Shown here in pieces: positions 3,694-33,406 of a stretch of 53,232 nt of DNA (the first letter of the stretch is position 1; every line of letters starts with the position of its first letter). The notes under the pieces were generated by a model, which was not told where the DNA came from, made no database searches, and saw only the letters and a program-made list of their open reading frames with translations. Made by a program: the position numbers and the translations under genes. Source of the DNA: an uncultured Bacteroides sp. (GTDB lineage: Bacteria; Bacillota; Clostridia; Christensenellales; CAG-917); the NCBI GenBank assembly GCA_964624745.1, contig CAZUZK010000006.1, positions 1-53,232 of the forward strand, written 5' to 3'.

Positions 3694-5184
3694 TTACCAA
3701 AGATTGTCGTTTCTTACGATAGCGCAGCCCTTGCTTGCTCTGCCGACAGCCGCGATGCCGTTCTTTGCGCCGCTGATGTCCGCGTAACCGTCGTTTGTGG
3801 TTGCGATAAGGCTACCGTTGGTTGCAAACAAGCGGAGACGATATTCGCCTTTCTTGTCGAGATAGATTTCCCATTTGGGGAACTTCAAAACCTCGTAATT
3901 CTTCAAGGTTTGGTTTTCGACAGGAGCTTTTTCTGCGTTGTTAATAACGCTTTGAATGCCGATTTTCGCCGCGCCGAGAGTGGTGTAGGCTTGTGCGCCG
4001 ATTGCCACTACGCGGTAGTTGGAGGAATAGAGCTTAAACACGAAATTGCCTTTATCCGTCTTTTTGATGACGTATTTGCCGTGCATTCTGCCTTCGCCCT
4101 CGACAAGTACGGTTTCCTCGTTGTCTTTTACGGCTTTGGTTTCTTTAGCTTCCTTTGCAGGGGCTGCCTTCGGGGCTTTTTCGACTTTTCCGTCCTTGGT
4201 AGCAGTCTTGGTTGCTTTGGCTTTCGGAGCCTTTTCTTCTTTTGTTGCCGGTGCTTCCGTTTTCACGGTTTTGTCTGCTGCTTTTGCCACTTTTATATTT
4301 TCCTCCGTTGTAGTATTTTTAGTATTATCGACAGCCTTCGTCGCCTTTTTAGCGGTAGATTTCGGCTTGCTTTCGGTAGCTTTAACGGTATCTTCGGCTT
4401 TTGGCTCGGAGGTAGTCTTTACGGTTTTGGTATTCGTAGCTTTCTTCACGTTTTTGTCTTCTTCAAGTGCCGAAGCCTCTTTCTTTTGAACGACGGGAGC
4501 AACCGCCCAAAGGTCTTCTGCTTTTTCCTGTTTCTTTTTGGTGGAAACGACCTTTGCTTTCGTCGGTTTTTCGATGTCGAAATTGGTATCGAACAACGCG
4601 TCGTTTACGGAGAATCCGTCGCTTATATGTATCTCTGTGTCGTTGTTGGACACGACGCTCTTTGCCTTTTTGACGGGTTTTTCTTCGGCAATCGGTTCTT
4701 CTTGGACGGGAGTAGCAACGCTTTCTTGTTCGGCGTTGTTTTCTTCAATCAGAGTTTCGAGAGAAGAGACTTCTTCTTGTACAACTTCTTCAACCTGCGT
4801 ATCTTCTGCGACGAGAGTGTCTTGTTCGACCTGTTCTTCAACAGCCGCAACAGGTTCTTCAACCGCTTCGGTATGTTCTTCTACGGGTTCAACTACGGCG
4901 TTTGCTTCCTCAACAAGCTCTTCTGCAGGCTCTTCGGTCGGCTCGGCGACGTCTTCGACAGGCTCTTCGACTTTTTCTTCCTGCACGGGTTCTTCTTGCT
5001 CGGCAGTTGTTTCTTCAAGGACGTCGAGCGACGCGTCGTCGTTATTTTCTTCTTCGAGTATCGGCAACGTCACTTCCTCGACGGAGCCGTCCTCGGCTCT
5101 TCTTATAAGAGTGCCGACAGGGGCAGTATCGTCGTCCTCGACGATTTCGCTTTCCAAGAATTCGATTTCATCAAAATTTACCAT
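3694..5184 (-). CDS. Protein with a long acidic/basic low-complexity N-region and two C-terminal YegP-like DUF1508 repeats
   Basis: C-terminal repeats GNFVFKLYSSNYRVVAIGAQAYTTLGAAKIGIQSV and GEYRLRLFATNGSLIATTNDGYADISGAKNGIAAV match the YegP/DUF1508 pattern. The start is moved to the ATG at 5184 (MVNFDEIEF), preceded by GGAGGA. Confidence 0.75.
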   Translation of the reverse strand: MVNFDEIEFLESEIVEDDDTAPVGTLIRRAEDGSVEEVTLPILEEENNDDASLDVLEETTAEQEEPVQEEKVEEPVEDVAEPTEEPAEELVEEANAVVEPVEEHTEAVEEPVAAVEEQVEQDTLVAEDTQVEEVVQEEVSSLETLIEENNAEQESVATPVQEEPIAEEKPVKKAKSVVSNNDTEIHISDGFSVNDALFDTNFDIEKPTKAKVVSTKKKQEKAEDLWAVAPVVQKKEASALEEDKNVKKATNTKTVKTTSEPKAEDTVKATESKPKSTAKKATKAVDNTKNTTTEENIKVAKAADKTVKTEAPATKEEKAPKAKATKTATKDGKVEKAPKAAPAKEAKETKAVKDNEETVLVEGEGRMHGKYVIKKTDKGNFVFKLYSSNYRVVAIGAQAYTTLGAAKIGIQSVINNAEKAPVENQTLKNYEVLKFPKWEIYLDKKGEYRLRLFATNGSLIATTNDGYADISGAKNGIAAVGRASKGCAIVRNDNLW

Positions 5185-5341
5185 AAAAATAAATTCCTCC
5201 GCGAGAAAACAGAAGAATTTTTTTATATAAAAAAACTCCTCTATAATCCATGATATGTATATCATAACATAACAAATTCTCTAAATCAATAAACTTTTGA
5301 ACTTTTTTGCAATCAAATTTTGTGTATTTTGACATAAAAAT

Positions 5342-23014: not shown

Positions 23015-25042
23015 ATGCTTACGTTGCGCGACATCAAAGGCGTCGGCGACGCAACGGAGAAAAAACTTCACGACCTTGGCATACACAGCGTATTCGAGGT
23101 CTTTTCTTTTTTACCGAAACGCTATATCGATTTGCAACAACCCGTGCGCGTTTTCGACGCGCAGATAGGACAGCTTTGTCTGCTTGAAGGACGAGTAGAA
23201 AAGGTAGGCGACGTTTCCGCAAGAGGCAAGCGCGCCTTCAACGTCACCTTCAGCGACAACCTGTCGGCAAACAAAGTGTTTTTCAGAGCAACGTTCTACA
23301 ATATGCCGTTTTTGCACGATAATTTTGAAGTCGGGCAGAATTACAGAATGCTCGCTCGCCTTGCAAACGTCCCCGGTGTTTTGACGGTTGTCAATCCGCA
23401 GCTTGAAAAGCTTGAGAGAATTTCAAAGCTACAAGGCATTTACACCTTGTATTCGCTCGGCGGGACAATGGGGCAGAATGCCTACAAAAACATGGTTTAT
23501 TCCGCGCTCGACGCGTTAAATTCCGTGCAATACGAGGGTAGACTTGCAAAGGTCAATAAGGATTTGGCAGCCTGCTTTGAGCTTGCGCATCGTCCGAGCG
23601 ACCTTCAAATCGCCGAAAGAGCGCAAAATTCTCTTGCCTCCATAGACGTTGCAATCGTGTTGTCAATTTATCGAAAATTGCGAGATTCAGCACAAAAACA
23701 AAGAAAAGTATTCTACAATTTTAACGATTTTAGAATAGAAAACTTTATAAAAGCAATAAATTTCACCCCTACTCCAACTCAAATTCAAGCCTTTGAAGAT
23801 ATATTGTCCGATATGTCTTCACCTCTCAATATGTCGCGCATTATAAGCGGCGACGTAGGAAGCGGAAAAACAATCGTAGCGTTTTTTGCAATGTACGCCA
23901 CGGCGTTTGCCAATAAGCAAGCAGTGCTTATGGTTCCCACGGAGATTTTGGCAAAGCAGCATTTTTCAAAGCTTGAACCGCTTGCAAAAAAGCTCGACAT
24001 ATCCTGCGCATTGCTCACAAGTTCTTCAACGGCGCGCGAGCGTAGAGAGGTGTTGAGCGGATTAAAGAGAGGCGAAATATCTTGTGTAGTCGGCACAAGC
24101 TCTCTTGTCGGCGAAGACGTCGAGTATGCAAATCTAGCTCTTGCCGTTATCGACGAACAGCACCGTTTCGGCGTAAACGAAAGGGGAAAGCTCGAGCAAA
24201 AGGGCGCTTGCGACGTATTAAGTCTTACCGCCACTCCCATTCCGCGCTCTATGGCGCTCACTTTTTACGACGATATAGCCATTTCTCGCATTGAAAAACG
24301 CGAGGAAGCAAAGACAAACGTAAAAACGGTTGTTTACATGGATATTGCCGAATCGTTGGAATTTTTGCGCGAACGTCTTAAGGAAGGCAAACAGGCATTT
24401 ATCGTCTGTCCGTCGATTATCGATGCGGAAGGCAACGATATTATGTCTATTGAAAGCTTTATGCGTGATTACGGCGGATATTTCGACGGTTTCTCAACCT
24501 CCGTAATACACGGAAAGCTCGATATGGCGCAAAAGGAGCAGGCGATGAATGATTTTGCGCAGGGCAGAACCTCGCTTTTGGTTGCAACAACGGTTATTGA
24601 AGTCGGCGTTGACACAAAAGCAAGCGAAATTTTGATTCTCAACGCGGACCGTTTCGGGCTTGCTTCGCTCCACCAGCTGCGCGGACGCGTAGGACGAGAC
24701 GGAAGAGAAGCGCACTGTCTTTTGTATTCTCGCGCCGAGGGTGAGAAATCCTCTCAACGACTAAACGCCCTATGCGAGAGCAACGACGGTCAATATCTTG
24801 CCGAGATGGATTTTGAGATGAGGGGCGCAGGCGAATTTATAGGCGTAAAGCAAAGCGGTAAATCCTTAACTCCGATGTTCGAGTTGCAAATGAACGCACG
24901 CGTACTTAAAAATGCCAAGGAGTATTCCGACAAGTATCTTTCCTCCTTAACCCTAAACGAGCTTCTCGCTCTTACAAGATGCTCCAAGGGACGCGTTGAC
25001 AGCTTTATCGAGGAGCTGAAATGCGTAACCCTAAACAGCTGA
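23015..25042 (+). CDS. recG: ATP-dependent DNA helicase RecG
   Basis: Wedge domain plus SF2 helicase motifs GDVGSGKT, DEQHRFG, and QLRGRVGR. Confidence 0.95.
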   Translation: MLTLRDIKGVGDATEKKLHDLGIHSVFEVFSFLPKRYIDLQQPVRVFDAQIGQLCLLEGRVEKVGDVSARGKRAFNVTFSDNLSANKVFFRATFYNMPFLHDNFEVGQNYRMLARLANVPGVLTVVNPQLEKLERISKLQGIYTLYSLGGTMGQNAYKNMVYSALDALNSVQYEGRLAKVNKDLAACFELAHRPSDLQIAERAQNSLASIDVAIVLSIYRKLRDSAQKQRKVFYNFNDFRIENFIKAINFTPTPTQIQAFEDILSDMSSPLNMSRIISGDVGSGKTIVAFFAMYATAFANKQAVLMVPTEILAKQHFSKLEPLAKKLDISCALLTSSSTARERREVLSGLKRGEISCVVGTSSLVGEDVEYANLALAVIDEQHRFGVNERGKLEQKGACDVLSLTATPIPRSMALTFYDDIAISRIEKREEAKTNVKTVVYMDIAESLEFLRERLKEGKQAFIVCPSIIDAEGNDIMSIESFMRDYGGYFDGFSTSVIHGKLDMAQKEQAMNDFAQGRTSLLVATTVIEVGVDTKASEILILNADRFGLASLHQLRGRVGRDGREAHCLLYSRAEGEKSSQRLNALCESNDGQYLAEMDFEMRGAGEFIGVKQSGKSLTPMFELQMNARVLKNAKEYSDKYLSSLTLNELLALTRCSKGRVDSFIEELKCVTLNS

Positions 25043-25342
25043 TTATGATATGCCGACCTTTATATAGCCTATAGCTTCAAACGCTGATTTTCCATATTCT
25101 AACCGTACATAATGCGCAAATTCATATAGCTGATGTTTTCGTTATTCTAACACTGTTTTTTCTCCAATCGGCAATGCTTTTATGTGATAACATTTTGCCG
25201 AATTTCTCTTGTTTTTCTCGCAAAATCGTTTTGATTTTCTTTGAAAATTCGGTTATTTGTTTTCGGCAATTATTGTCGAATTTCCGCAAAATAACGCTTA
25301 TTTCGATTTATTTCTTTTCTTTTCGCGCACACCTTAAACGCC

Positions 25343-25370
25343 TTGACATTTTTTTGAATACATTTATAAT
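25343..25370 (+). promoter_or_regulatory. Near-consensus sigma-A promoter driving the large ncRNA
   Basis: TTGACA (25343-25348), 16-nt spacer, TATAAT (25365-25370). Preceded by a 300-nt AT/T-tract-rich spacer. Confidence 0.7.
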
Positions 25371-25377
25371 AATATTA

Positions 25378-25960
25378 AATGGTGGTGCAGTATTCTAGTC
25401 AGATTCCACCGACTCGGAGGCGGGGGTAAAATATCGCCGAAGGGCATATCGATGAAGTTTCTGGTGATGGCTTCTTTTGCCCAAATCGGGGCTGTTGCTG
25501 GGAGTTAAGGTTTTTGGGCGGTTTGCAACGGCATGCAAAAATGCGACCCAATTTCCGTGGAGACCCAACTCGGTAGACGGCGTAACAATCGTTTACTGAC
25601 TGGGGTTAAACCTGATATGCGGTGCGTCTGCGCTGTGTACAGTGTAGCCTGCTTTGAGTGGCGCGGCGGAATTCGAGAACAACGTTTTTGAGTATGGCCA
25701 ATACAAGAAGACGATCGCTCGATGAAATCCGCGTTGCAAAAAAAGATAAGGGCGGGCGGAATCTGTCAAGGAAATCTTCTAGACTGTTCTTTGGAGACAG
25801 CTTGGGGATTATAGTGTGTTCTAAACGGCGATTCGGTTTCTTTTTAAGATGAAACGTGCAATAGGAAACTTCTCGGACGGCGACGACGAGTTTCGTTTCA
25901 GGGAAATCCTACCGAACCTATGGCGCAAGGTTTACCCATGCTGTTGCCACCATTCAACGC
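25378..25960 (+). ncRNA. ole: Large structured non-coding RNA, candidate OLE (ornate, large, extremophilic) RNA
   Basis: About 580 nt with no credible ORF and a GC-richer composition than its flanks. Terminal closing helix AATGGTGG (25378-85) / CCACCATT (25947-54), nested GGGTAAA (25424-30) / TTTACCC (25931-37), and TTTGCAACG (25522-30) / CGTTGCAAA (25732-40). Followed by a 4-TM membrane protein and then tlyA-nadK-argR-recN, which is the published OLE neighbourhood. The family assignment has not been verified by a covariance model. Confidence 0.65.
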
Positions 25961-25981
25961 AATTACAACTTGAGGTGCTTT

Positions 25982-26863
25982 GTGCAAAATCTCAATCAAA
26001 AGGAAGCCAATGCTTCAAATACCTCTCAACAGCCATCAAAAGCCGATTCTTTTGATGGTGTTTCTTATTCTTCGAGCAATGCGCATTTAGAGAAAGATTC
26101 GACAAACGGCTTTTCGCAAGATAGCAAAAATGTCGTTCTCGATTCTAAAAGCGAGGCTTGCTCCGAGCAAAACGTTGCCAAAGGCAACGATAAGGTGGTT
26201 ATAGAAAAGGTCACCGTTGACAATTCCGTTTCAAAGACGAAAAGCAATCAATCGCAAAAGTTCGAAAAGCATGACAAAAAGAAGAAAAACGCCAAGAAAA
26301 AGCGCAATCTTTGGTGGATTAAGGCAATAATAATTTCACTTGTTTTATCGGCGTTTTTCTCGTATATAAGCGAAATAGTCGCCAATGCCGACCAGCTTGT
26401 CGTGGTTATCGTATTGCTTGCGTTTTTGATACTTTCGGGCGTTGTATTCGACGCAATCGGAGTGGCGGTAACCTCCTGCGACACGACGCCGATAATTTCT
26501 ATGGCGTCAAGAAAGGTTTACGGCGCGAAAACCGCATTATGGCTCACAAAAAACAGCGATACCGTATCAAGCGTCTGCAACGACATCATAGGCGATATTT
26601 TCAGCATTATTTCGGGTGCTTGCTCGGCGGCTCTGGTTGTAAAAATCACGGTATCTCTCAATGAAACGTGGCAAATAGTCTTGTCGATAGCTGTGTCGGC
26701 AGTCGTCTCCGCGCTCACGATAGGCGGCAAAGCGTTTATGAAGAAAATCGCCATAGACAATTCAAAGGATTTCGTAATGTTCGTCGCGCGCACGCTAGCC
26801 GTGTTCTCGAAAGAGGAGAGGAAAATCCGCAAAAAAGCGAAGAAAAACGCTCAAAAGCAATAA
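25982..26863 (+). CDS. oapA: 4-TM membrane protein with a hydrophilic N-extension, candidate OLE-associated protein OapA
   Basis: C-terminal ~180 aa has four TM helices (motifs FDAIGVAV and NDIIGDIFSIISG). There is no in-frame ATG, so the start is GTG 25982 after GAGGTG (25972-77), or alternatively TTG 25970. It starts about 25 nt after the closing helix of the ncRNA. Confidence 0.6.
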   Translation: MQNLNQKEANASNTSQQPSKADSFDGVSYSSSNAHLEKDSTNGFSQDSKNVVLDSKSEACSEQNVAKGNDKVVIEKVTVDNSVSKTKSNQSQKFEKHDKKKKNAKKKRNLWWIKAIIISLVLSAFFSYISEIVANADQLVVVIVLLAFLILSGVVFDAIGVAVTSCDTTPIISMASRKVYGAKTALWLTKNSDTVSSVCNDIIGDIFSIISGACSAALVVKITVSLNETWQIVLSIAVSAVVSALTIGGKAFMKKIAIDNSKDFVMFVARTLAVFSKEERKIRKKAKKNAQKQ

Positions 26864-26936
26864 GATAATCGCAAAAGCAATGAGATAATCGCCAAAAAAA
26901 CAATGAGATAATCGCGAAAAAACACAATAAAAATAA
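26852..26936. repeat. Tandem ~20-nt repeat CAAAAGCAAT(A/G)AGATAATCGC (3 copies plus degenerate copies). The 17-mer CGCAAAAGCAATGAGAT recurs at the tlyA start (27041-27057).
   Basis: Copies at 26852-26872 (includes the last codons and stop of the upstream CDS), 26872-26892 and 26892-26915. Confidence 0.8.
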
Positions 26937-27050
26937 ACCTAAAAAGCTCGCAAAACAATAGGTAGGAGCAAAAAATAGCACAACAATTAAACAAAACGGC
27001 AAAGATAAGCTTAAGATAAGAGAAGACGCAAAAATCAAATCGCAAAAGCA

Positions 27051-27761
27051 ATGAGATTAGACAAGTATTTACAGCTGAAATTCAATTTGAAATCTAGAAC
27101 CTATGCGGAAAATCTCGTCAAAACAGGCAAGGTTTTCGTCAATGGAAAAATCGCGGAAAAAACCTCTTTGGACGTTTGCGATACCGACGAAATTTCAATC
27201 ACGCAGGACGAAAACTACGCCTCGCAGGGCGCGTATAAGCTGGAAAAAGCCTTTGAGGAATTTCACCTTGACGTCACCGACAAATCGTGCGCGGACATCG
27301 GCTGTTCCAACGGCGGCTTTACGGACTGTCTTTTGCGCCACGGCGCAAGAAGCGTGCTTGCCGTAGACGTTGCGGAATGCGCGTTAAGTCAAGATTTGCT
27401 ATCCTCAGGCAAGGTTACCTTTTTGCGTGCAAACGCAAGAGAATTGCCCGATAGCGTCGAAAAGGTAGATTTTCTTTGCAGCGATTTAAGCTTTATTTCT
27501 CTTAAACTCGTACTTTCGTCTATGTACGGCGTATTGAAAAAAGGCGGTGAAGCAGTGCTTCTTGTGAAGCCGCAATTCGAGCTAGACAAAAAGGCGCTTA
27601 ACAAAAACGGCATCGTACAAGACGAAAAGCTACGTCAAAAAGCCTTGACGCAAGTTTTATCCTACGCGCAGTCAACCGGCTTCGAGCTTATTTCTCAAAC
27701 AACGTCGCCCATTCGTTACGAAAACAAAAACGTAGAGTATTTGATTTATCTAAAAAAATAA
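27051..27761 (+). CDS. tlyA: TlyA-family rRNA 2'-O-methyltransferase (S4 + FtsJ domains)
   Basis: N-terminal S4 domain MRLDKYL... and a SAM-binding motif DIGCSNGGFTD. Confidence 0.9.
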   Translation: MRLDKYLQLKFNLKSRTYAENLVKTGKVFVNGKIAEKTSLDVCDTDEISITQDENYASQGAYKLEKAFEEFHLDVTDKSCADIGCSNGGFTDCLLRHGARSVLAVDVAECALSQDLLSSGKVTFLRANARELPDSVEKVDFLCSDLSFISLKLVLSSMYGVLKKGGEAVLLVKPQFELDKKALNKNGIVQDEKLRQKALTQVLSYAQSTGFELISQTTSPIRYENKNVEYLIYLKK

Positions 27762-27846
27762 TTTATCCGAAATTATCTGAAATAAATAATAACTGAAAAA
27801 ATAGTTTATTTTCCTCGCAAAATTACGCCAAAATTTATTACGCAAA

Positions 27847-28155
27847 TCAATTCTCACCGGGATTTTCGGTTGAAGCATTTGTTTGGGGATTTGCGCTTGA
27901 ACCGCTTTCGGCTTCGACTATATTTTTCTTGTTTTTCTTATCTTTTTTCTCTTTCTTTTGGGCTTCTTTAAGCGCAAGCTCCTCGTTTTGCTGTTTAGCC
28001 TTGCGTTTAAGCGCAACGGGACCGTCCTCCGCCTTTGGTTTTTGATAGTGTTTGACAACGACTATCACCACGACGGCAATCGCAATGAGCATACCGGACA
28101 GACCTCCGACGAGCTTTGTAGCGAATTCGCTTATGCCAATGATTTGAGAAAGCAT
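27847..28155 (-). CDS. Small single-TM protein with a Lys/Glu-rich tail (hypothetical)
   Basis: One TM helix (LVGGLSGMLIAIAVVVIVVV) followed by a charged low-complexity tail. The RBS is weak and the start is uncertain (28155 or 28179). Confidence 0.4.
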   Translation of the reverse strand: MLSQIIGISEFATKLVGGLSGMLIAIAVVVIVVVKHYQKPKAEDGPVALKRKAKQQNEELALKEAQKKEKKDKKNKKNIVEAESGSSANPQTNASTENPGEN

Positions 28156-28264
28156 ACTAAAATTATATATCCGTATCAAAATACTGTCAAGCGCGAGAAT
28201 TTTATTTGCAAATGTATAAAACGGATAAATTTATGCAGTTTTTTATAAAAAACGTATTATATAC

Positions 28265-28293
28265 TTGAATAAAAAATATGGTTGTTGTATAAT
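28265..28293 (+). promoter_or_regulatory. Candidate sigma-A promoter of nadK-argR-recN
   Basis: TTGAAT (28265-70), 17-nt spacer, TATAAT (28288-93). The first plausible ATG (28304) is only ~10 nt downstream of the -10 box. Confidence 0.4.
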
Positions 28294-28303
28294 GCGTATA
28301 ACT

Positions 28304-29128
28304 ATGAAAACCAAGCTTGCAATATTCGCAAAAGTGAAAACGCGCGGCGATTCCGCTCGCGCAACGATAGTAAAAGCCATCGAAGACGACGGTGCTTTCG
28401 ACGTTTGCGAATTTGAAGACGCAAGCGAAATCGATTCCTCCTTCGACAAGCTTTTGGTGTTCGGCGGTGACGGCACGATGCTCGAGGCTGTCCGCGCGAT
28501 AGGCGAAAAGGATATATCCGTTCTCGGTGTAAACCTCGGCAATCTCGGTTTTTTGGCTGAGTTTGAACGCACGACAGACGCAAGCGAAATAATCGACGCG
28601 TTAAAGTGTGGCGCAACGAAGGAAAAGCTGCTTTTGTCCGTAAACTTAAACGGCAAAATTTTAGCGCGCGCTCTCAACGAGGTTGTGATAAAAAGCTCCA
28701 CGACGCGCCCGATTTTCATAGATTTGTACGTCGATGACAATTACGTCGATTCCTATCACAGCGACGGCGCGATAATCTCGTCGCCTACCGGTTCGACGGC
28801 GTATTCGTTGTCGGCAGGGGGTCCGATACTTTCGCCCGACGTATCGGCGTTTGTTGTCAATCCGATATGCGCGCATTCTTTGCATTCCCGTCCGCTTGTG
28901 ATAAGCTCCTCGTCGAGGGTGACGCTCAAGCTTTCGGGTGACGAAAACGCAAGCGCGTGCATCGACGGCGGCGCGGTGTTCGATTTGCCGCGCGACTCCG
29001 CAATAACGGTGCAAAAGGCGAGCAACGGCGTGCGCTTTATCACAAAGGGCGACGACGATTTCTACAAAAAACTATTTCAAAAGATGAACAGATGGGGCAC
29101 GACGCACACGACGTCGAGCAACCGATAA
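28304..29128 (+). CDS. nadK: NAD kinase
   Basis: GGDGTML motif, NLG.LGFL, and SSPTGSTAYSLSAGGPI. The start could alternatively be at 28292. Confidence 0.92.
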   Translation: MKTKLAIFAKVKTRGDSARATIVKAIEDDGAFDVCEFEDASEIDSSFDKLLVFGGDGTMLEAVRAIGEKDISVLGVNLGNLGFLAEFERTTDASEIIDALKCGATKEKLLLSVNLNGKILARALNEVVIKSSTTRPIFIDLYVDDNYVDSYHSDGAIISSPTGSTAYSLSAGGPILSPDVSAFVVNPICAHSLHSRPLVISSSSRVTLKLSGDENASACIDGGAVFDLPRDSAITVQKASNGVRFITKGDDDFYKKLFQKMNRWGTTHTTSSNR

Positions 29129-29138
29129 GGAGAATATT

Positions 29139-29612
29139 ATGGCAAGAGCAAACAGACAGCTCAAGATTTTGGATATTATATCCAAGCACGACATAGATAC
29201 GCAAGAAGAGCTTGTAGATTATCTTAAAAGCGAGGGCTTCAGCGTCACGCAGGCAACGGTGTCCAGAGACATCAAGGATATGGGTATAATCAAAACCCTT
29301 TCCGCAGACGGCAGACACTACAAATACGCCTCCCAGCAGACAAAGGAAGCGAGCGCGGCGGATAAGTTTCTTAATATGTTCAAAAACGCGGTCGTATCCA
29401 TAAAAAGCTCGGGCAATTTGATTGTATTGAAGACGGAAGCCGGAAGCGCGTGTCCCGCCGCAGAGCTTATCGACAAGCTTTGCTATGAGGAAGTGCTCGG
29501 CGTTATCGCAGGCGACAACACGATTTTCGTTGCGGTGGATTCCATAGACCACGTAGATCTTATACGCAGACGTCTCGAGGAGCTTCTCGAAGCCAACAGA
29601 ATTTATAATTAA
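29139..29612 (+). CDS. argR: Arginine repressor
   Basis: Winged-helix N-domain (TQATVSRDIKDMG) and a C-terminal GDNTIFV oligomerisation/arginine-binding motif. Confidence 0.95.
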   Translation: MARANRQLKILDIISKHDIDTQEELVDYLKSEGFSVTQATVSRDIKDMGIIKTLSADGRHYKYASQQTKEASAADKFLNMFKNAVVSIKSSGNLIVLKTEAGSACPAAELIDKLCYEEVLGVIAGDNTIFVAVDSIDHVDLIRRRLEELLEANRIYN

Positions 29613-29620
29613 AGCGATTT

Positions 29621-31315
29621 ATGTTAAGTCAACTTTCCATCGAAAATATCGCGCTTATAGACAAGCTGGAGCTTGATTTGAACGGCGGATTGAATATTTT
29701 AAGCGGTGAAACCGGCGCGGGCAAGTCGATTATTATTGACTCGCTCAATTTCGTATTGGGAGAAAGAGCGGACAAATCGCTTATCCGATACGGCGCGGAG
29801 CAAGCCGTCGTTCAAGCGATATTCGAGGATTATCTCACGCCGTCCATACGCGAATATTTGGACGAAATCGGCATAGAAGCCGAGGACGTGTTGATATTGC
29901 GCAGAAAAATGACCGTCGAGGGTAAAAACGAATGTCGCATCAACGGCAGAGTTTTCACGCTGTCCACGCTAAAGGGACTCACCGAGCTTTTGGTTGACAT
30001 ACACGGTCAGCACGAGCATCAATCCTTGCTCAAAAGCGCGAACCATATCAAGCTTTTAGACAATATCGGCGAGGGAAAAATCGAAAACGCAAGGCTTGAT
30101 ACCTGCGAAAAACACAAGCGTTACACGTCCTTGAAAAAGGAATTTTCAAGATTCGGAGACGCAAGCGAAAGAGAGCGCAAGCTCGACATTTTGACCTATC
30201 AGCTTGAAGAAATAGAGAAAGTAGACGTAAAGGAAGGGGAAGAAGAGGAGCTTCTTGCGCAGCGTAAACGCATACGCAATATGGAGAAAATTCTTTCCGC
30301 ACTCTCCGAGGCGCGCTCGACGCTCGACGGCTACGATCGCTCAAGCGTAAGCGCGTCCGTAAAAAACGCGTCGTCCTTGCTTTCGACAATTTCGTCTTAT
30401 GACGAAAGCGTTTCTCCGCTTATCGATAGATTGGATTCCGTAAAGGTGGAAATCGAGGACATCGGCGACACGCTGTCGGATATGCTTGAAAGGCTCGATT
30501 TCGATTCTCGCTCGGCAGAGCGTATCGAGGATAGGCTCGAACAGGTACGCGCACTGTTGCGCAAGTACGGCAATTCGTACGAAGCGTTGCAAAGCTTTTA
30601 CAAAAACGCGCTTGAAGAAGCAAGCGTGCTTGCAAATGCGGAGCAGACCGTTGAAAAACTCGAAGCCGATATAAAGCTTGCAGGCGAAGACCTTATCGCA
30701 AGCGCGAGCAAGCTTTCAAAATTGCGCAAAAGCACTGCCGAGAGCTTTGAAAAGGATATTATGCGCGAGCTTTCCAATTTGGGAATGAACGGCTCGACCT
30801 TTAAGGTTGAAATTACTTCAACGTCGAATATTGACGAAATAAGCGCAAACGGCGCGGATAACGTCGAATTTTTGATTTCTCCCAACGTCGGCGAGCCGCT
30901 CAAACCGCTTGCAAAAATAATATCTGGCGGTGAAATGTCAAGATTTATGCTTGCCTTCAAGAATATAGTCGCAGGCATAGACGGTATCGGCACTATGGTA
31001 TTCGACGAGATAGATACCGGAATTTCGGGCAATATATCCGCAGTCGTGTCCGAAAAGATGTGCAATATATCGCGCAACAGACAGGTTATCGCCGTCACGC
31101 ATATGCCAAGCCTTGCCGCAATGGCGGACAGTCATTATCTCATCGCGAAGTCGGCAAAGGACGGGAAAACGCTCACGCACGTTACGCTTTTAGAGGACGA
31201 TACGGACGAGGTTGCGCGCTTAATCGGCGGAAACGATTACAGCAGGTACGCCGTGCCGCACGCAAAAGAAATGAAGGCGTGGGCAGAAAAATACAAGCAA
31301 ACCTTAAAAAAGTAA
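29621..31315 (+). CDS. recN: DNA repair protein RecN
   Basis: SMC-like protein with Walker A GETGAGKS, long coiled coils, a signature SGGE, and Walker B FDEIDTG. Confidence 0.95.
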   Translation: MLSQLSIENIALIDKLELDLNGGLNILSGETGAGKSIIIDSLNFVLGERADKSLIRYGAEQAVVQAIFEDYLTPSIREYLDEIGIEAEDVLILRRKMTVEGKNECRINGRVFTLSTLKGLTELLVDIHGQHEHQSLLKSANHIKLLDNIGEGKIENARLDTCEKHKRYTSLKKEFSRFGDASERERKLDILTYQLEEIEKVDVKEGEEEELLAQRKRIRNMEKILSALSEARSTLDGYDRSSVSASVKNASSLLSTISSYDESVSPLIDRLDSVKVEIEDIGDTLSDMLERLDFDSRSAERIEDRLEQVRALLRKYGNSYEALQSFYKNALEEASVLANAEQTVEKLEADIKLAGEDLIASASKLSKLRKSTAESFEKDIMRELSNLGMNGSTFKVEITSTSNIDEISANGADNVEFLISPNVGEPLKPLAKIISGGEMSRFMLAFKNIVAGIDGIGTMVFDEIDTGISGNISAVVSEKMCNISRNRQVIAVTHMPSLAAMADSHYLIAKSAKDGKTLTHVTLLEDDTDEVARLIGGNDYSRYAVPHAKEMKAWAEKYKQTLKK

Positions 31316-31603: not shown

Positions 31604-31605
31604 CA

Positions 31606-31930
31606 TAGCGAGATTAGTCTGTAAGCCGAGTTCTGTATTGGACGGTCATCTATCTAGAGCGTACATTTCTGCACGCTTCAAGCGATGTGGGGAGTATGCG
31701 GGCCACATATATACTCCCGATCTTGCATCGAGTGGGGTTTACATCGCGCATTGTCGCCAAATTGCGGGTGAGCTCTTACCTCGCCTTTCCATCCTTACCG
31801 TATAAAACGGCGGTATTTTTCTGTTGCACTGTCCTTGAAGTCGCCTTCACCGGGAGTTACCCGGCACCCTTGCCCTGTGATGCTCGGACTTTCCTCAAAT
31901 ATTTCATGCGACCGTCTGGCTAACTCGCAA
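31606..31930 (-). ncRNA. rnpB: RNase P RNA, bacterial type A
   Basis: The minus strand reads GAGGAAAGUCCGAGC (31882-31896), GGGCAAGGGUGCCGGGUAACUCCCGG, AGUGCAACAGAAA, GGUAAGAGCUCACC, and ACAGAACUCGGCUUAC (31621-31636). The P1 ends GCGAGUUAG / CUAAUCUCGC pair. Confidence 0.9.
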
Positions 31931-32026: not shown

Positions 32027-33406
32027 ATGGTATACGCGCTCACGTTTTCTATAACGGCGTTTTTCATATTGCTGTATATAATTTTGCGCAAGCCCGACCG
32101 CGAGAGGCATTATTTTACGTTGTCCGACGAGGAGTATCGGAAGGAGTGCAAACGCTTCGTTCACGCCTTGCCTTTGCCTCAAAAGAGCGGAAGCACAAAC
32201 GATAAAAGATATAAGCGAACGATAAGATTTTTATCTAAAAAACTTAAAATGAAACGCTATAAGGGCATTTTCGACGACTTTTTGGAAAATATCAAGACGT
32301 TTGATATACTCTTAAAGACGGATTATTCGGCATTGGAAAACGTCGCAAGCGTAAACGGCGAGGCAAGATGTGTGGCTTTGGCTCGGTTTTGCCTTGCAAA
32401 CAGCGACTATATTTTTACAAACGACAGATTTAGGATAATCGCAGAGTGTCAAAACCGCTTTCGCTCGTTGACCTTTGCGGAAATTCTTTCAATGAAAGAA
32501 GCTTTTTTGTACGTCCTCCTTGAAAAGTTGTATTTTATCTATATGGGACTTGATTCGATAGCAAGGGTTATGAAATACGCAAAGGCTTACGTTTTCGACG
32601 GTGGAAACAGTAAAAGCAAAAAGCTGAAAGGCTATTCCAGGTCAAAATTGTTTTTAAGTCTGTGCGCAATCGAAATCGATTGTATTAGTGAGGGGAAGCA
32701 AGAAGCGTTAAGGGAAGTGATAGACGAGCTGTATACCTCGTATTCGCATGTATTGCGTTCAATCGGCGACGTGCTTTGCTTCGATTTTTCGCGATTTTAC
32801 TCGCCGCTAGAGATATACGACAAGTTTTCTTCCTTTTCAAATGCAGACGAAAACGCAAAGGAAGCTTTTTTGAAGCTTGCCGCTTCGTTGAGCGATAAAG
32901 AAAATTTGGACGAATTTATGTATGCGATACGCGTTGAAAAGTATATGCAATCGGCGTCGGCAGGGCATATAGCCGTTGCGAGAGGAGATTTTTTAGGCAA
33001 GCGGTTTTCTATAATTAAATGCAAAAAGGACATATCGCTTATCGGCTTGGGCTTGAAATCCGACTTTCTTATGCGCGCATTGTTTTCACAGAATAAAAAT
33101 GCAAAAAAGAAAAACACTATTTCAAAATTTATTGATTTTGAGAATAGTTTTGAACCGATTTACAAATTTAATAATATAAATTTCGGAATTTCCACTCAAA
33201 ACGGCGCGTTGAAAATTCTTCCTCGTCTTCCGAACAACGTCGTCCGTGCGGACGTGCGTTTTGTCGAAAACGGCGTCGAACACGCTCTTCACGTTATCCG
33301 CGGCGATAAAGAGGAGATATATCTCGGCTCGACGCGTCTTAAAGGCACGGGATATATAAGACTGTCTGATAAGCCCCTTGACGTTACGGTGGTGGTAGAA
33401 AAATAA
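32027..33406 (+). CDS. Hypothetical membrane-anchored protein. Weak resemblance to the non-catalytic N-terminal region of cyclic beta-1,2-glucan synthase / GH94-type proteins.
   Basis: N-terminal TM helix. The segment ARCVALARFCLANSDY...LTFAEILSMKEAFLYVLLEKL resembles the PR.YALA.EL..HSDG...LT.GELWA.P.MLRLALIENL region of that family. This comparison is from memory only. Confidence 0.3.
   Translation: MVYALTFSITAFFILLYIILRKPDRERHYFTLSDEEYRKECKRFVHALPLPQKSGSTNDKRYKRTIRFLSKKLKMKRYKGIFDDFLENIKTFDILLKTDYSALENVASVNGEARCVALARFCLANSDYIFTNDRFRIIAECQNRFRSLTFAEILSMKEAFLYVLLEKLYFIYMGLDSIARVMKYAKAYVFDGGNSKSKKLKGYSRSKLFLSLCAIEIDCISEGKQEALREVIDELYTSYSHVLRSIGDVLCFDFSRFYSPLEIYDKFSSFSNADENAKEAFLKLAASLSDKENLDEFMYAIRVEKYMQSASAGHIAVARGDFLGKRFSIIKCKKDISLIGLGLKSDFLMRALFSQNKNAKKKNTISKFIDFENSFEPIYKFNNINFGISTQNGALKILPRLPNNVVRADVRFVENGVEHALHVIRGDKEEIYLGSTRLKGTGYIRLSDKPLDVTVVVEK

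Follow-up and report, generated by a model that had tools for sequence, protein, structure and literature searches.

Introduction

OLE RNA, whose name stands for ornate, large and extremophilic, is a class of RNA described in 2006. In published work it is an abundant, stable, membrane-localised ribonucleoprotein that dimerises via conserved loops (PMC3413148, PMC12265935, PMC12286853), and OLE RNAs of Halalkalibacterium (Bacillus) halodurans, hereinafter H. halodurans, and of Clostridium have been reported to bind OapA at conserved palindromic sites. The OLE complex helps cells cope with alcohols, cold, excess Mg2+ and poor carbon sources; its biochemical activity is unknown in the field. A total of 2,822 OLE representatives have been reported in GTDB Bacillota (PMC11332333). 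Here we analyse the ole locus of a 53,232-nucleotide (nt) stretch of DNA (GenBank assembly GCA_964624745.1, contig CAZUZK010000006.1, forward strand), hereinafter the window. We are highly confident that 25378-25954 (+) holds a functional ole gene, that its product is a full-length OLE RNA and that 25982-26863 is its membrane partner gene, oapA.

The locus shares with the H. halodurans OLE the RF01071 family, the closing helix P1, a strong promoter of its own and a start, here predicted, at P1, as well as oapA directly downstream and tlyA, nadK, argR and recN nearby. It differs in four respects. The host comes from an uncultured, anaerobic clostridial lineage of the gut rather than from an alkaliphilic Bacillus relative, the upstream gene is recG instead of isoprenoid genes, P13 lacks the OapB-bound GNRA loop and bulge, and OapA carries an extension of ~110 amino acids (aa). 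With the OLE RNA of C. acetobutylicum (PMC12286853), the RNA has in common its 577 nt from P1 to P1, the conserved junction sequences and the palindromic GGCC at the tip of P9, whereas the two sequences are only ~70% or less identical. By analogy with the published RNAs, the OLE RNA of the window would be abundant, stable, dimeric, bound to OapA and sited at the membrane.

A third point of comparison is "variant 1" OLE, found mostly in TANB77 gut Clostridia (PMC11332333). Like variant 1, the RNA of the window has no OapB-binding P13 tip and belongs to an uncultured gut anaerobe. However, variant 1 has shortened P7, P8 and P9, which are near full length here, so that only the P13 feature is shared. 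This OLE is thus of the full-length type in everything but P13 and is not a member of variant 1.

Identity and extent of the OLE RNA

The whole window was scanned against Rfam 15, and the segment 24900-28400 was rescanned permissively at E<=1. RF01071 (OLE) matches 25366-25966 (+) with 406.1 bits, against a gathering score of 50 (E 6.4e-116). The alignment is not truncated, spanning model positions 1-616 of 616, and the window is identical to the consensus at 218 of the 249 upper-case (highly conserved) positions. From the first to the last nucleotide of P1, the RNA (25378-25954, +) measures 577 nt, in line with a family of ~600 nt in which ~25% of nucleotides are highly conserved.

A prediction made earlier from the sequence alone (hereinafter the original prediction) had named this region a candidate OLE RNA and had proposed searches with RF01071 and with models of other large non-coding RNAs. 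That interpretation is correct, because the RF01071 match is overwhelming and the other models give no match. Size and structure by themselves would also suit another large class (GOLLD, ROOL, HEARO or raiA) or a new one. No match to any of these four was found in 24900-28400 even at E<=1 with permissive filters, and the sole hit besides OLE was a chance, sub-threshold match to a snoRNA model at 26043-26114; the alternative is refuted, and its probability is practically nil. Likewise, the OLE match as an artefact is excluded by its full length, by covariation and by synteny.

The OLE RNA of the window is therefore a member of an already known class, a rediscovery that adds no new kind of element, and any Rfam-based annotation would detect it with the same overwhelming score. 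The added value of this copy is modest and comparative. Specifically, it combines full-length domain-1 arms with the lack of the P13 OapB site.

The closing helix P1

The original prediction had held that the RNA is closed by complementarity between its first nucleotides and a sequence just before the next gene. AATGGTGG (25378-85) is indeed the exact reverse complement of CCACCATT (25947-54), and a shuffle test in which the first 8 nt were to be complemented within the last 40 nt gave p ~0.00075. The entire helix comprises the 5' strand AAUGGUGGUG (25378-25387, +) and the 3' strand UGCCACCAUU (25945-25954, +), joined by 8 Watson-Crick and 2 G-U pairs. In the Rfam RF01071 consensus structure, the first ~53 and last ~19 model positions are unpaired, the 3' strand included, and P1 is unannotated.

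We examined the covariation of P1 in homologous loci. Genomes were scanned for the invariant 5' motif GTGGTGCAGTATNCTAGTCA, which yielded 120 OLE loci, and 75 distinct loci were used. The 10 nt upstream of GUGGU were joined to the 15 nt from the conserved (A/G)CCAC near the 3' end; the strands were placed by these sequence anchors only, and the pairs were counted afterwards. The closing 5'/3' helix, formed in the window by the strands AAUGGUGG/CCACCAUU, covaries strongly. Its score is 0.392, compared with 0.181 for shuffled strands (none of 500 shuffles reached the observed value), slid registers give 0.06-0.17, and 85.7% of its cells are paired, compared with 73.9% in shuffles. The pair adjoining the invariant core is GC in 45 loci, AU in 24, GU in 4 and UA in 1, with 1 locus unpaired. 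The closure of the RNA thus stands, and the covariation sought in homologous regions is present in P1. The helix 25378-25387/25945-25954 is almost certainly the published P1, and a helix left unannotated in the Rfam consensus structure has strong covariation support.

Promoter, spacer and internal reading frames

A sigma-70/sigma-A-type promoter (25343-25370, +) precedes P1, with the -35 element TTGACA at 25343-48, a 16-nt spacer and the -10 element TATAAT at 25365-70. It had been described as near-consensus and matches the consensus at 12 of 12 positions. The predicted transcription start, ~25377-25378, coincides with the first nucleotide of P1. In 6 relatives the two hexamers and the spacing between the -10 element and AAUGGUGG are invariant, while the sequence upstream of the -35 element is unalignable. 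Of 121 OLE loci (L003-L122 and the window), 69 have a promoter that agrees with the consensus at 10 or more of the 12 positions and ends 6-20 nt before GUGGUG, versus 4 of 605 random positions. On this count, a proximal promoter is a general property of ole and not a peculiarity of H. halodurans, whose OLE has its own active proximal promoter with 5' ends mapped near the start of P1 (PMC3413148).

The composition of the region is as originally described. The 300 nt between recG and the promoter (25043-25342) are AT-rich (34% GC), and 25378-25960 has a clearly higher GC content (49%; entire window, 46%). The spacer is specific to the window, as in relatives recG stops 44-155 nt before OLE. It contains only short imperfect direct and inverted repeats; an Rfam scan at E<=1 gave no RNA-family match to it, and no function was found for it.

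Two open reading frames (ORFs), 25658-25852 and 25849-26055, lie in the region or run beyond its end, and a coding explanation would assign the region to one or both of them. The original prediction had correctly reported their existence, their overlap (4 nt) and the lack of a ribosome-binding site, but it had called both Arg-rich, which holds for the first (13 R in 64 aa) and not for the second (5 R in 68 aa). A stop-free stretch persists at the position of the first ORF in relatives, which is accounted for by the 87% nucleotide identity. Neither ORF has a Shine-Dalgarno sequence, and the second is not conserved in relatives, so small coding ORFs inside OLE are unsupported. Moreover, relatives carry 1-nt indels inside the first ORF, the substitutions are compensatory in RNA helices, and the covariance-model match accounts for the entire region. 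A protein-coding role of the region is extremely improbable.

Internal helices and loops

The helices other than P1 were accepted from the covariance-model alignment together with compensatory changes in a 7-sequence clade alignment. The P2 hairpin (25419-25438, +) was located from the Rfam alignment and a comparison of loops across loci, and carries an invariant UAAAA loop motif. Inverted complements of at least 8 nt number 5 in the region, against 2.3 +/- 2.2 in shuffles, which is not unusual.

Two nested long-range pairs had been proposed, GGGTAAA/TTTACCC and TTTGCAACG/CGTTGCAAA. Both are exact complements, as claimed; neither is a conserved helix, and both conflict with established local helices. 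GGGUAAA sits in the P2 loop. The base before UAAA is G here, which gives 7 bp, and C in most OLE RNAs. Because UAAAA and UUUAC are invariant across loci, covariation between them is impossible; a 4-bp loop contact between these two motifs is possible. The second pair, UUUGCAACG/CGUUGCAAA as RNA, was rejected since its strands belong to two different established helices. Specifically, UUUGCAACG forms the 5' half of a local hairpin, in which a C>U / G>A change in the relatives L050 and L054 is compensatory, and CGUUGCAAA forms the 3' strand at the foot of the long P9 arm. The proposed pairing is broken by CGCUGCAAA, carried by L012, L005 and L077.

The terminal loop of the long P9 arm contains the palindrome GGCC (25696-25699, +), aligned to the consensus GGCC. 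Cryo-EM of an OLE dimer revealed a kissing-loop contact at the P9 loop, with palindrome switching (PMC12286853). In L050 and L054 the loop sequence is GCGC, which is also a palindrome, as expected for a kissing contact. The conserved loops and this switch from GGCC to GCGC suggest that the OLE RNA of the window would dimerise as that of C. acetobutylicum does.

The alignment of P7-P9 with the model is almost complete, interrupted only by deletions of 1-3 nt. In contrast to typical OLE RNAs, in which the P13 segment is 40 nt long and bears a GG(U/C)(G/A)AC loop, the segment is 30-34 nt in the clade of the window. Here it is reduced to a mini-P13, UCUU-UUU-AAGA (25839-25849, +), by a 10-nt deletion relative to model positions 482-491. 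The site bound by OapB consists of a GNRA tetraloop plus one bulged nucleotide within P13, and the P14.1 loop is a weak secondary site (PMC7936274). In the window the P13 tetraloop and bulge, the main high-affinity site, are missing, and the P14/P14.1 arm (25850-25900, +) retains its GCGA tetraloop (25880-25883), the weak secondary OapB site, as placed by the Rfam alignment (PMC7936274). The mini-P13 itself covaries (UCUU/AAGA versus UCUC/GAGA). The loss of the P13 tip is documented natural variation, frequent in the variant 1 OLE RNAs (PMC11332333), and the P13 OapB site is not required for membership of the OLE class.

Several observations weigh against a functional ole gene. P13, with the high-affinity OapB site, is truncated; no oapB or oapC (ybxF) gene was detected among the ORFs scanned in the 53-kb window; the isoprenoid genes ispA and dxs, which often adjoin ole, are absent from the cluster; and the start site, the 3' end, the abundance and the membrane localisation are all inferred for this organism. 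The first three would fit a decaying, non-functional OLE relic that has lost its main OapB site and its ispA/dxs neighbours. Yet OLE is conserved better than any other segment of the locus among species with proteins only ~70% identical, its helices show compensatory changes, its promoter is invariant, the mini-P13 covaries, and variant 1 already provides a natural precedent for the missing tip (PMC11332333). A relic is highly improbable, and the functional ole gene is retained as our reading of the region.

The partner gene oapA

The gene downstream of P1, 25982-26863 (+), encodes 293 aa. It is preceded by a ribosome-binding site, GAGGUG (25972-77), and begins with GTG (25982-84; both elements, 25972-25984, +), 27 nt after P1. 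The position of the start is shared with relatives, five of which (L050, L054, L142, L227 and L143) have ATG in place of GTG, and a publicly available gene prediction for the identical contig likewise has 293 aa, in agreement with a start at 25982. The reading frame has no in-frame ATG upstream of the transmembrane core.

The core has four hydrophobic, predicted transmembrane helices, is CNNM-like (Pfam PF01595, 29.9 bits, a weak match) and contains the DxxxD motif (NDIIGD). Its best match among solved structures is CorB (7M1T/7M1U), also weak, and there are no other solved-structure matches. The same features, namely four predicted transmembrane helices, a weak PF01595 match, DxxxD and CorB 7M1U/7M1T as the closest structure, characterise OapA of H. 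halodurans (PMC11332333). The protein is related to the CNNM-domain Mg2+ transporters MpfA and CorB and, like other OapA proteins, has no CBS/CorC domains. In 100 of 106 loci, the ORF downstream of OLE is homologous to this core. The original prediction had taken the downstream membrane-protein gene for the OLE partner, and the CNNM match, the DxxxD motif and this homology bear it out: judged on four helices, CNNM likeness, DxxxD and location downstream of ole, the ORF is OapA.

Compared with other OapA proteins, OapA of the window has a disordered N-terminal extension of ~110 aa. It spans codons 1 to ~111 (25982-26314), is of low complexity and has a Lys-rich end. As a consequence, 355 nt separate P1 from the OapA core, with the frame open throughout, compared with a median of 102 nt across loci. 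Among the loci examined, the extension is limited to the clade of the window (L005, L012, L054, L077 and L116) and L004. Beyond its first ~90 nt the sequence is barely alignable, yet the frame is open in all clade members, an indication that the extension is translated. A possible origin is an upstream lengthening of the frame, across the terminator that follows OLE elsewhere. The idea that the missing P13 tip and the extended OapA are connected is unsupported, as many loci with a mini-P13 have OapA of ordinary length.

Predicted hairpins at the start of oapA and a proposed model for expression

Minimum-free-energy folding predicts a hairpin at the ribosome-binding site (25970-25995, +), in which UUGAGG, containing the Shine-Dalgarno sequence, pairs with UCUCAA of codons 4-5. 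GAGG is predicted to be paired in all such folds of the window and of 13 relatives. A second, small hairpin, GAAGC-CAAU-GCUUC (26003-26016, +; codons 8-12), appears in the folds of the window and relatives, and in L077 it reads GAGGC/GCCUC through synonymous changes that preserve the pairing.

A terminator scan identified a third element (26028-26069, +; codons 17-29), a terminator-like hairpin with its core at 26032-26059, followed by the U-rich sequence GUUUCUUAUU. The hairpin has a folding energy of -14.6 kcal/mol (z -4.7), and 5 other lineages have equivalents (z -2.9 to -5.1). In 9 distinct sequences, pairing holds in 88.9% of cells, and both sides differ in 4 of the 8 pairs; the third position of a Pro codon covaries with that of an Asp or Glu codon. 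More generally, a terminator-like hairpin lies within 260 nt after P1 in 24 of 75 OLE loci, versus 22 of 324 control segments.

Eight loci (L022, L024, L025, L055, L072, L078, L090 and L113) have a conserved GCUGAUAG-N4-6-CUAUCAGC hairpin with a U-tract, 3-12 nt after P1. In several Clostridia and Tissierellia-type lineages, it apparently serves as a terminator dedicated to OLE.

A promoter scan detected no separate oapA promoter. With oapA only 27 nt after P1, ole and oapA are almost certainly co-transcribed. This arrangement, and the predicted masking of the oapA ribosome-binding site, could also be expected if the 580 nt were only a long, structured leader at the 5' end of the oapA mRNA, acting in cis as a regulatory element, and not a stand-alone RNA. 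However, the sequence is a full-length OLE member, and the H. halodurans OLE is a single, very stable and highly abundant species (PMC3413148) that binds OapA in trans (PMC12265935). Furthermore, several other lineages have a terminator directly after P1, and a terminator-like hairpin is present here too. We consider a mere leader very unlikely and retain a stand-alone OLE RNA.

These features suggest a model in which a single promoter would transcribe both ole and oapA. The majority of transcripts would end or be stabilised at the hairpin ~80 nt past P1, within the first 30 codons of oapA, and OapA would be translated from read-through transcripts only, starting at GTG from a ribosome-binding site partly masked by a hairpin. 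The terminator-like hairpin, the masked site and the GTG start could together uncouple a high output of OLE RNA from a low synthesis of OapA. In H. halodurans on ethanol, the rise in oap mRNA is far smaller than the rise in OLE RNA (PMC3413148), a weak response that fits the proposed uncoupling. Conserved hairpins in the start of oapA could explain how one promoter yields far more OLE RNA than OapA.

Three observations count against this model. The lineage of L143 (L143, L188, L225 and L230) is without the terminator-like hairpin, and the U-tract after the hairpin is weak or absent in the L054 and L012 lineages. In addition, the covariation of the hairpin comes from 9 related sequences only, whose arms were anchored on a partly self-complementary Pro-Ser/Asp-Gly codon motif. 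Given the weak U-tract of some lineages and the small sample, we regard the uncoupling of OLE RNA from OapA output by the hairpins, the masked site and GTG as possible rather than probable.

E. coli pyrBI and pyrE have translation-coupled attenuators, in which a ribosome closely trailing the polymerase could suppress termination. As in pyrBI/pyrE, the terminator-like hairpin is located shortly after the start of a translated frame, and read-through into oapA might be controlled in a similar manner, purely by analogy. Unlike in pyrBI/pyrE, the upstream element is a stable non-coding RNA and not a metabolite-sensing leader peptide. We tentatively suggest, and would sooner doubt than assert, that the ole-oapA unit of the Christensenella-like clade has been rewired: the P13 OapB site was lost, OapA was extended, and the first ~90 nt of oapA became a translation-coupled attenuator that sets the OLE:OapA ratio. 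This clade-specific rewiring around oapA is the only material here that is new, and only mildly so.

Gene neighbourhood and conservation across relatives

The gene order in the window is rpe, rpmB (-), asp23, fakA, recG, OLE, oapA, tlyA, a small ORF (-), nadK, argR, recN and RNase P RNA (-). recG (23015-25042, +) is the upstream neighbour, assigned by Pfam and NCBIfam and syntenic in 11 relatives. Downstream, the original prediction had read a cluster of tlyA, nadK, argR and recN, and Pfam and NCBIfam agree: tlyA occupies 27051-27761 (+), nadK 28265-29128 (+), argR 29139-29612 (+) and recN 29621-31315 (+). A neighbourhood of this type has been reported as typical for ole (PMC12265935). In 11 close relatives, which are uncultured gut Clostridia and in some cases labelled Christensenella, fakA, recG, oapA, tlyA, nadK, argR and recN follow in the same order as in the window, where they fall within the fetched stretch.

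Six genome loci (L012, L116, L050, L005, L054 and L077) contain a full-length OLE that is 86-88% identical to that of the window; some of them are labelled Christensenella sp. UBA7588 or UBA767. The closest OLE loci come from metagenome-assembled genomes labelled Clostridia, Clostridiales or Christensenella, as befits a class hosted by Bacillota, typically by anaerobes or extremophiles. Exact matches to the window were confined to metagenome contigs. A metagenome scan with a 16-mer from the 3' end of OLE yielded 120 loci, 14 of which are real OLE and the rest mostly chance matches. Nucleotide identity across relatives is 87-88% for OLE, compared with 67-80% for recG, tlyA, fakA, argR and the oapA core, which makes OLE the element of the locus under the strongest constraint.

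Two loci have labels from outside these groups. L116 (CAZXUW010000003.1) comes from a metagenome-assembled genome labelled "uncultured Bacteroides sp." and has the Firmicutes-type order fakA-recG-OLE-oapA, and L047 (JBLMYQ010000034.1) is labelled "Deltaproteobacteria bacterium". Both labels are probably binning or labelling errors, of a kind noted by Fernando & Breaker (2024; PMC11332333).

Other features of the window

In the oapA-tlyA intergenic region (26853-26928, +), a 20-23-nt unit, AAAAACAATGAGATAATCGC, is tandemly repeated 3.4 times. An ATG-AGA-TAA mini-ORF is present in two copies, and a third has ATA for ATG. The copies resemble the start of tlyA, ATGAGATTA, at 27051. The repeat is absent in all relatives examined.

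Between tlyA and nadK lies a divergent small ORF (27847-28179, -; 110 aa), with a promoter matching at 12 of 12 positions (28190-28162, -). The product has one hydrophobic helix and a Lys/Glu-rich tail, gives no Pfam match and is weakly conserved in L225 and L230 (49% identity over 63 aa).

A bacterial class A RNase P RNA (31605-31927, -; 246 bits) is full length and adjoins recN. Beyond it, the 459-aa ORF 32027-33406 has no Pfam or NCBIfam match. At the other end of the window, a SAM-I riboswitch (RF00162; 40-166, +; 58.3 bits) is located directly upstream of an EamA-family transporter gene (199-1095, +), which suggests that expression of the transporter may be controlled by SAM. A 523-aa ORF (3694-5265, -) with C-terminal DUF1508 repeats overlaps a 447-aa ORF (3910-5253, +) that lacks a family match; the former belongs to a small minority of minus-strand genes, the window being otherwise almost all plus-strand.

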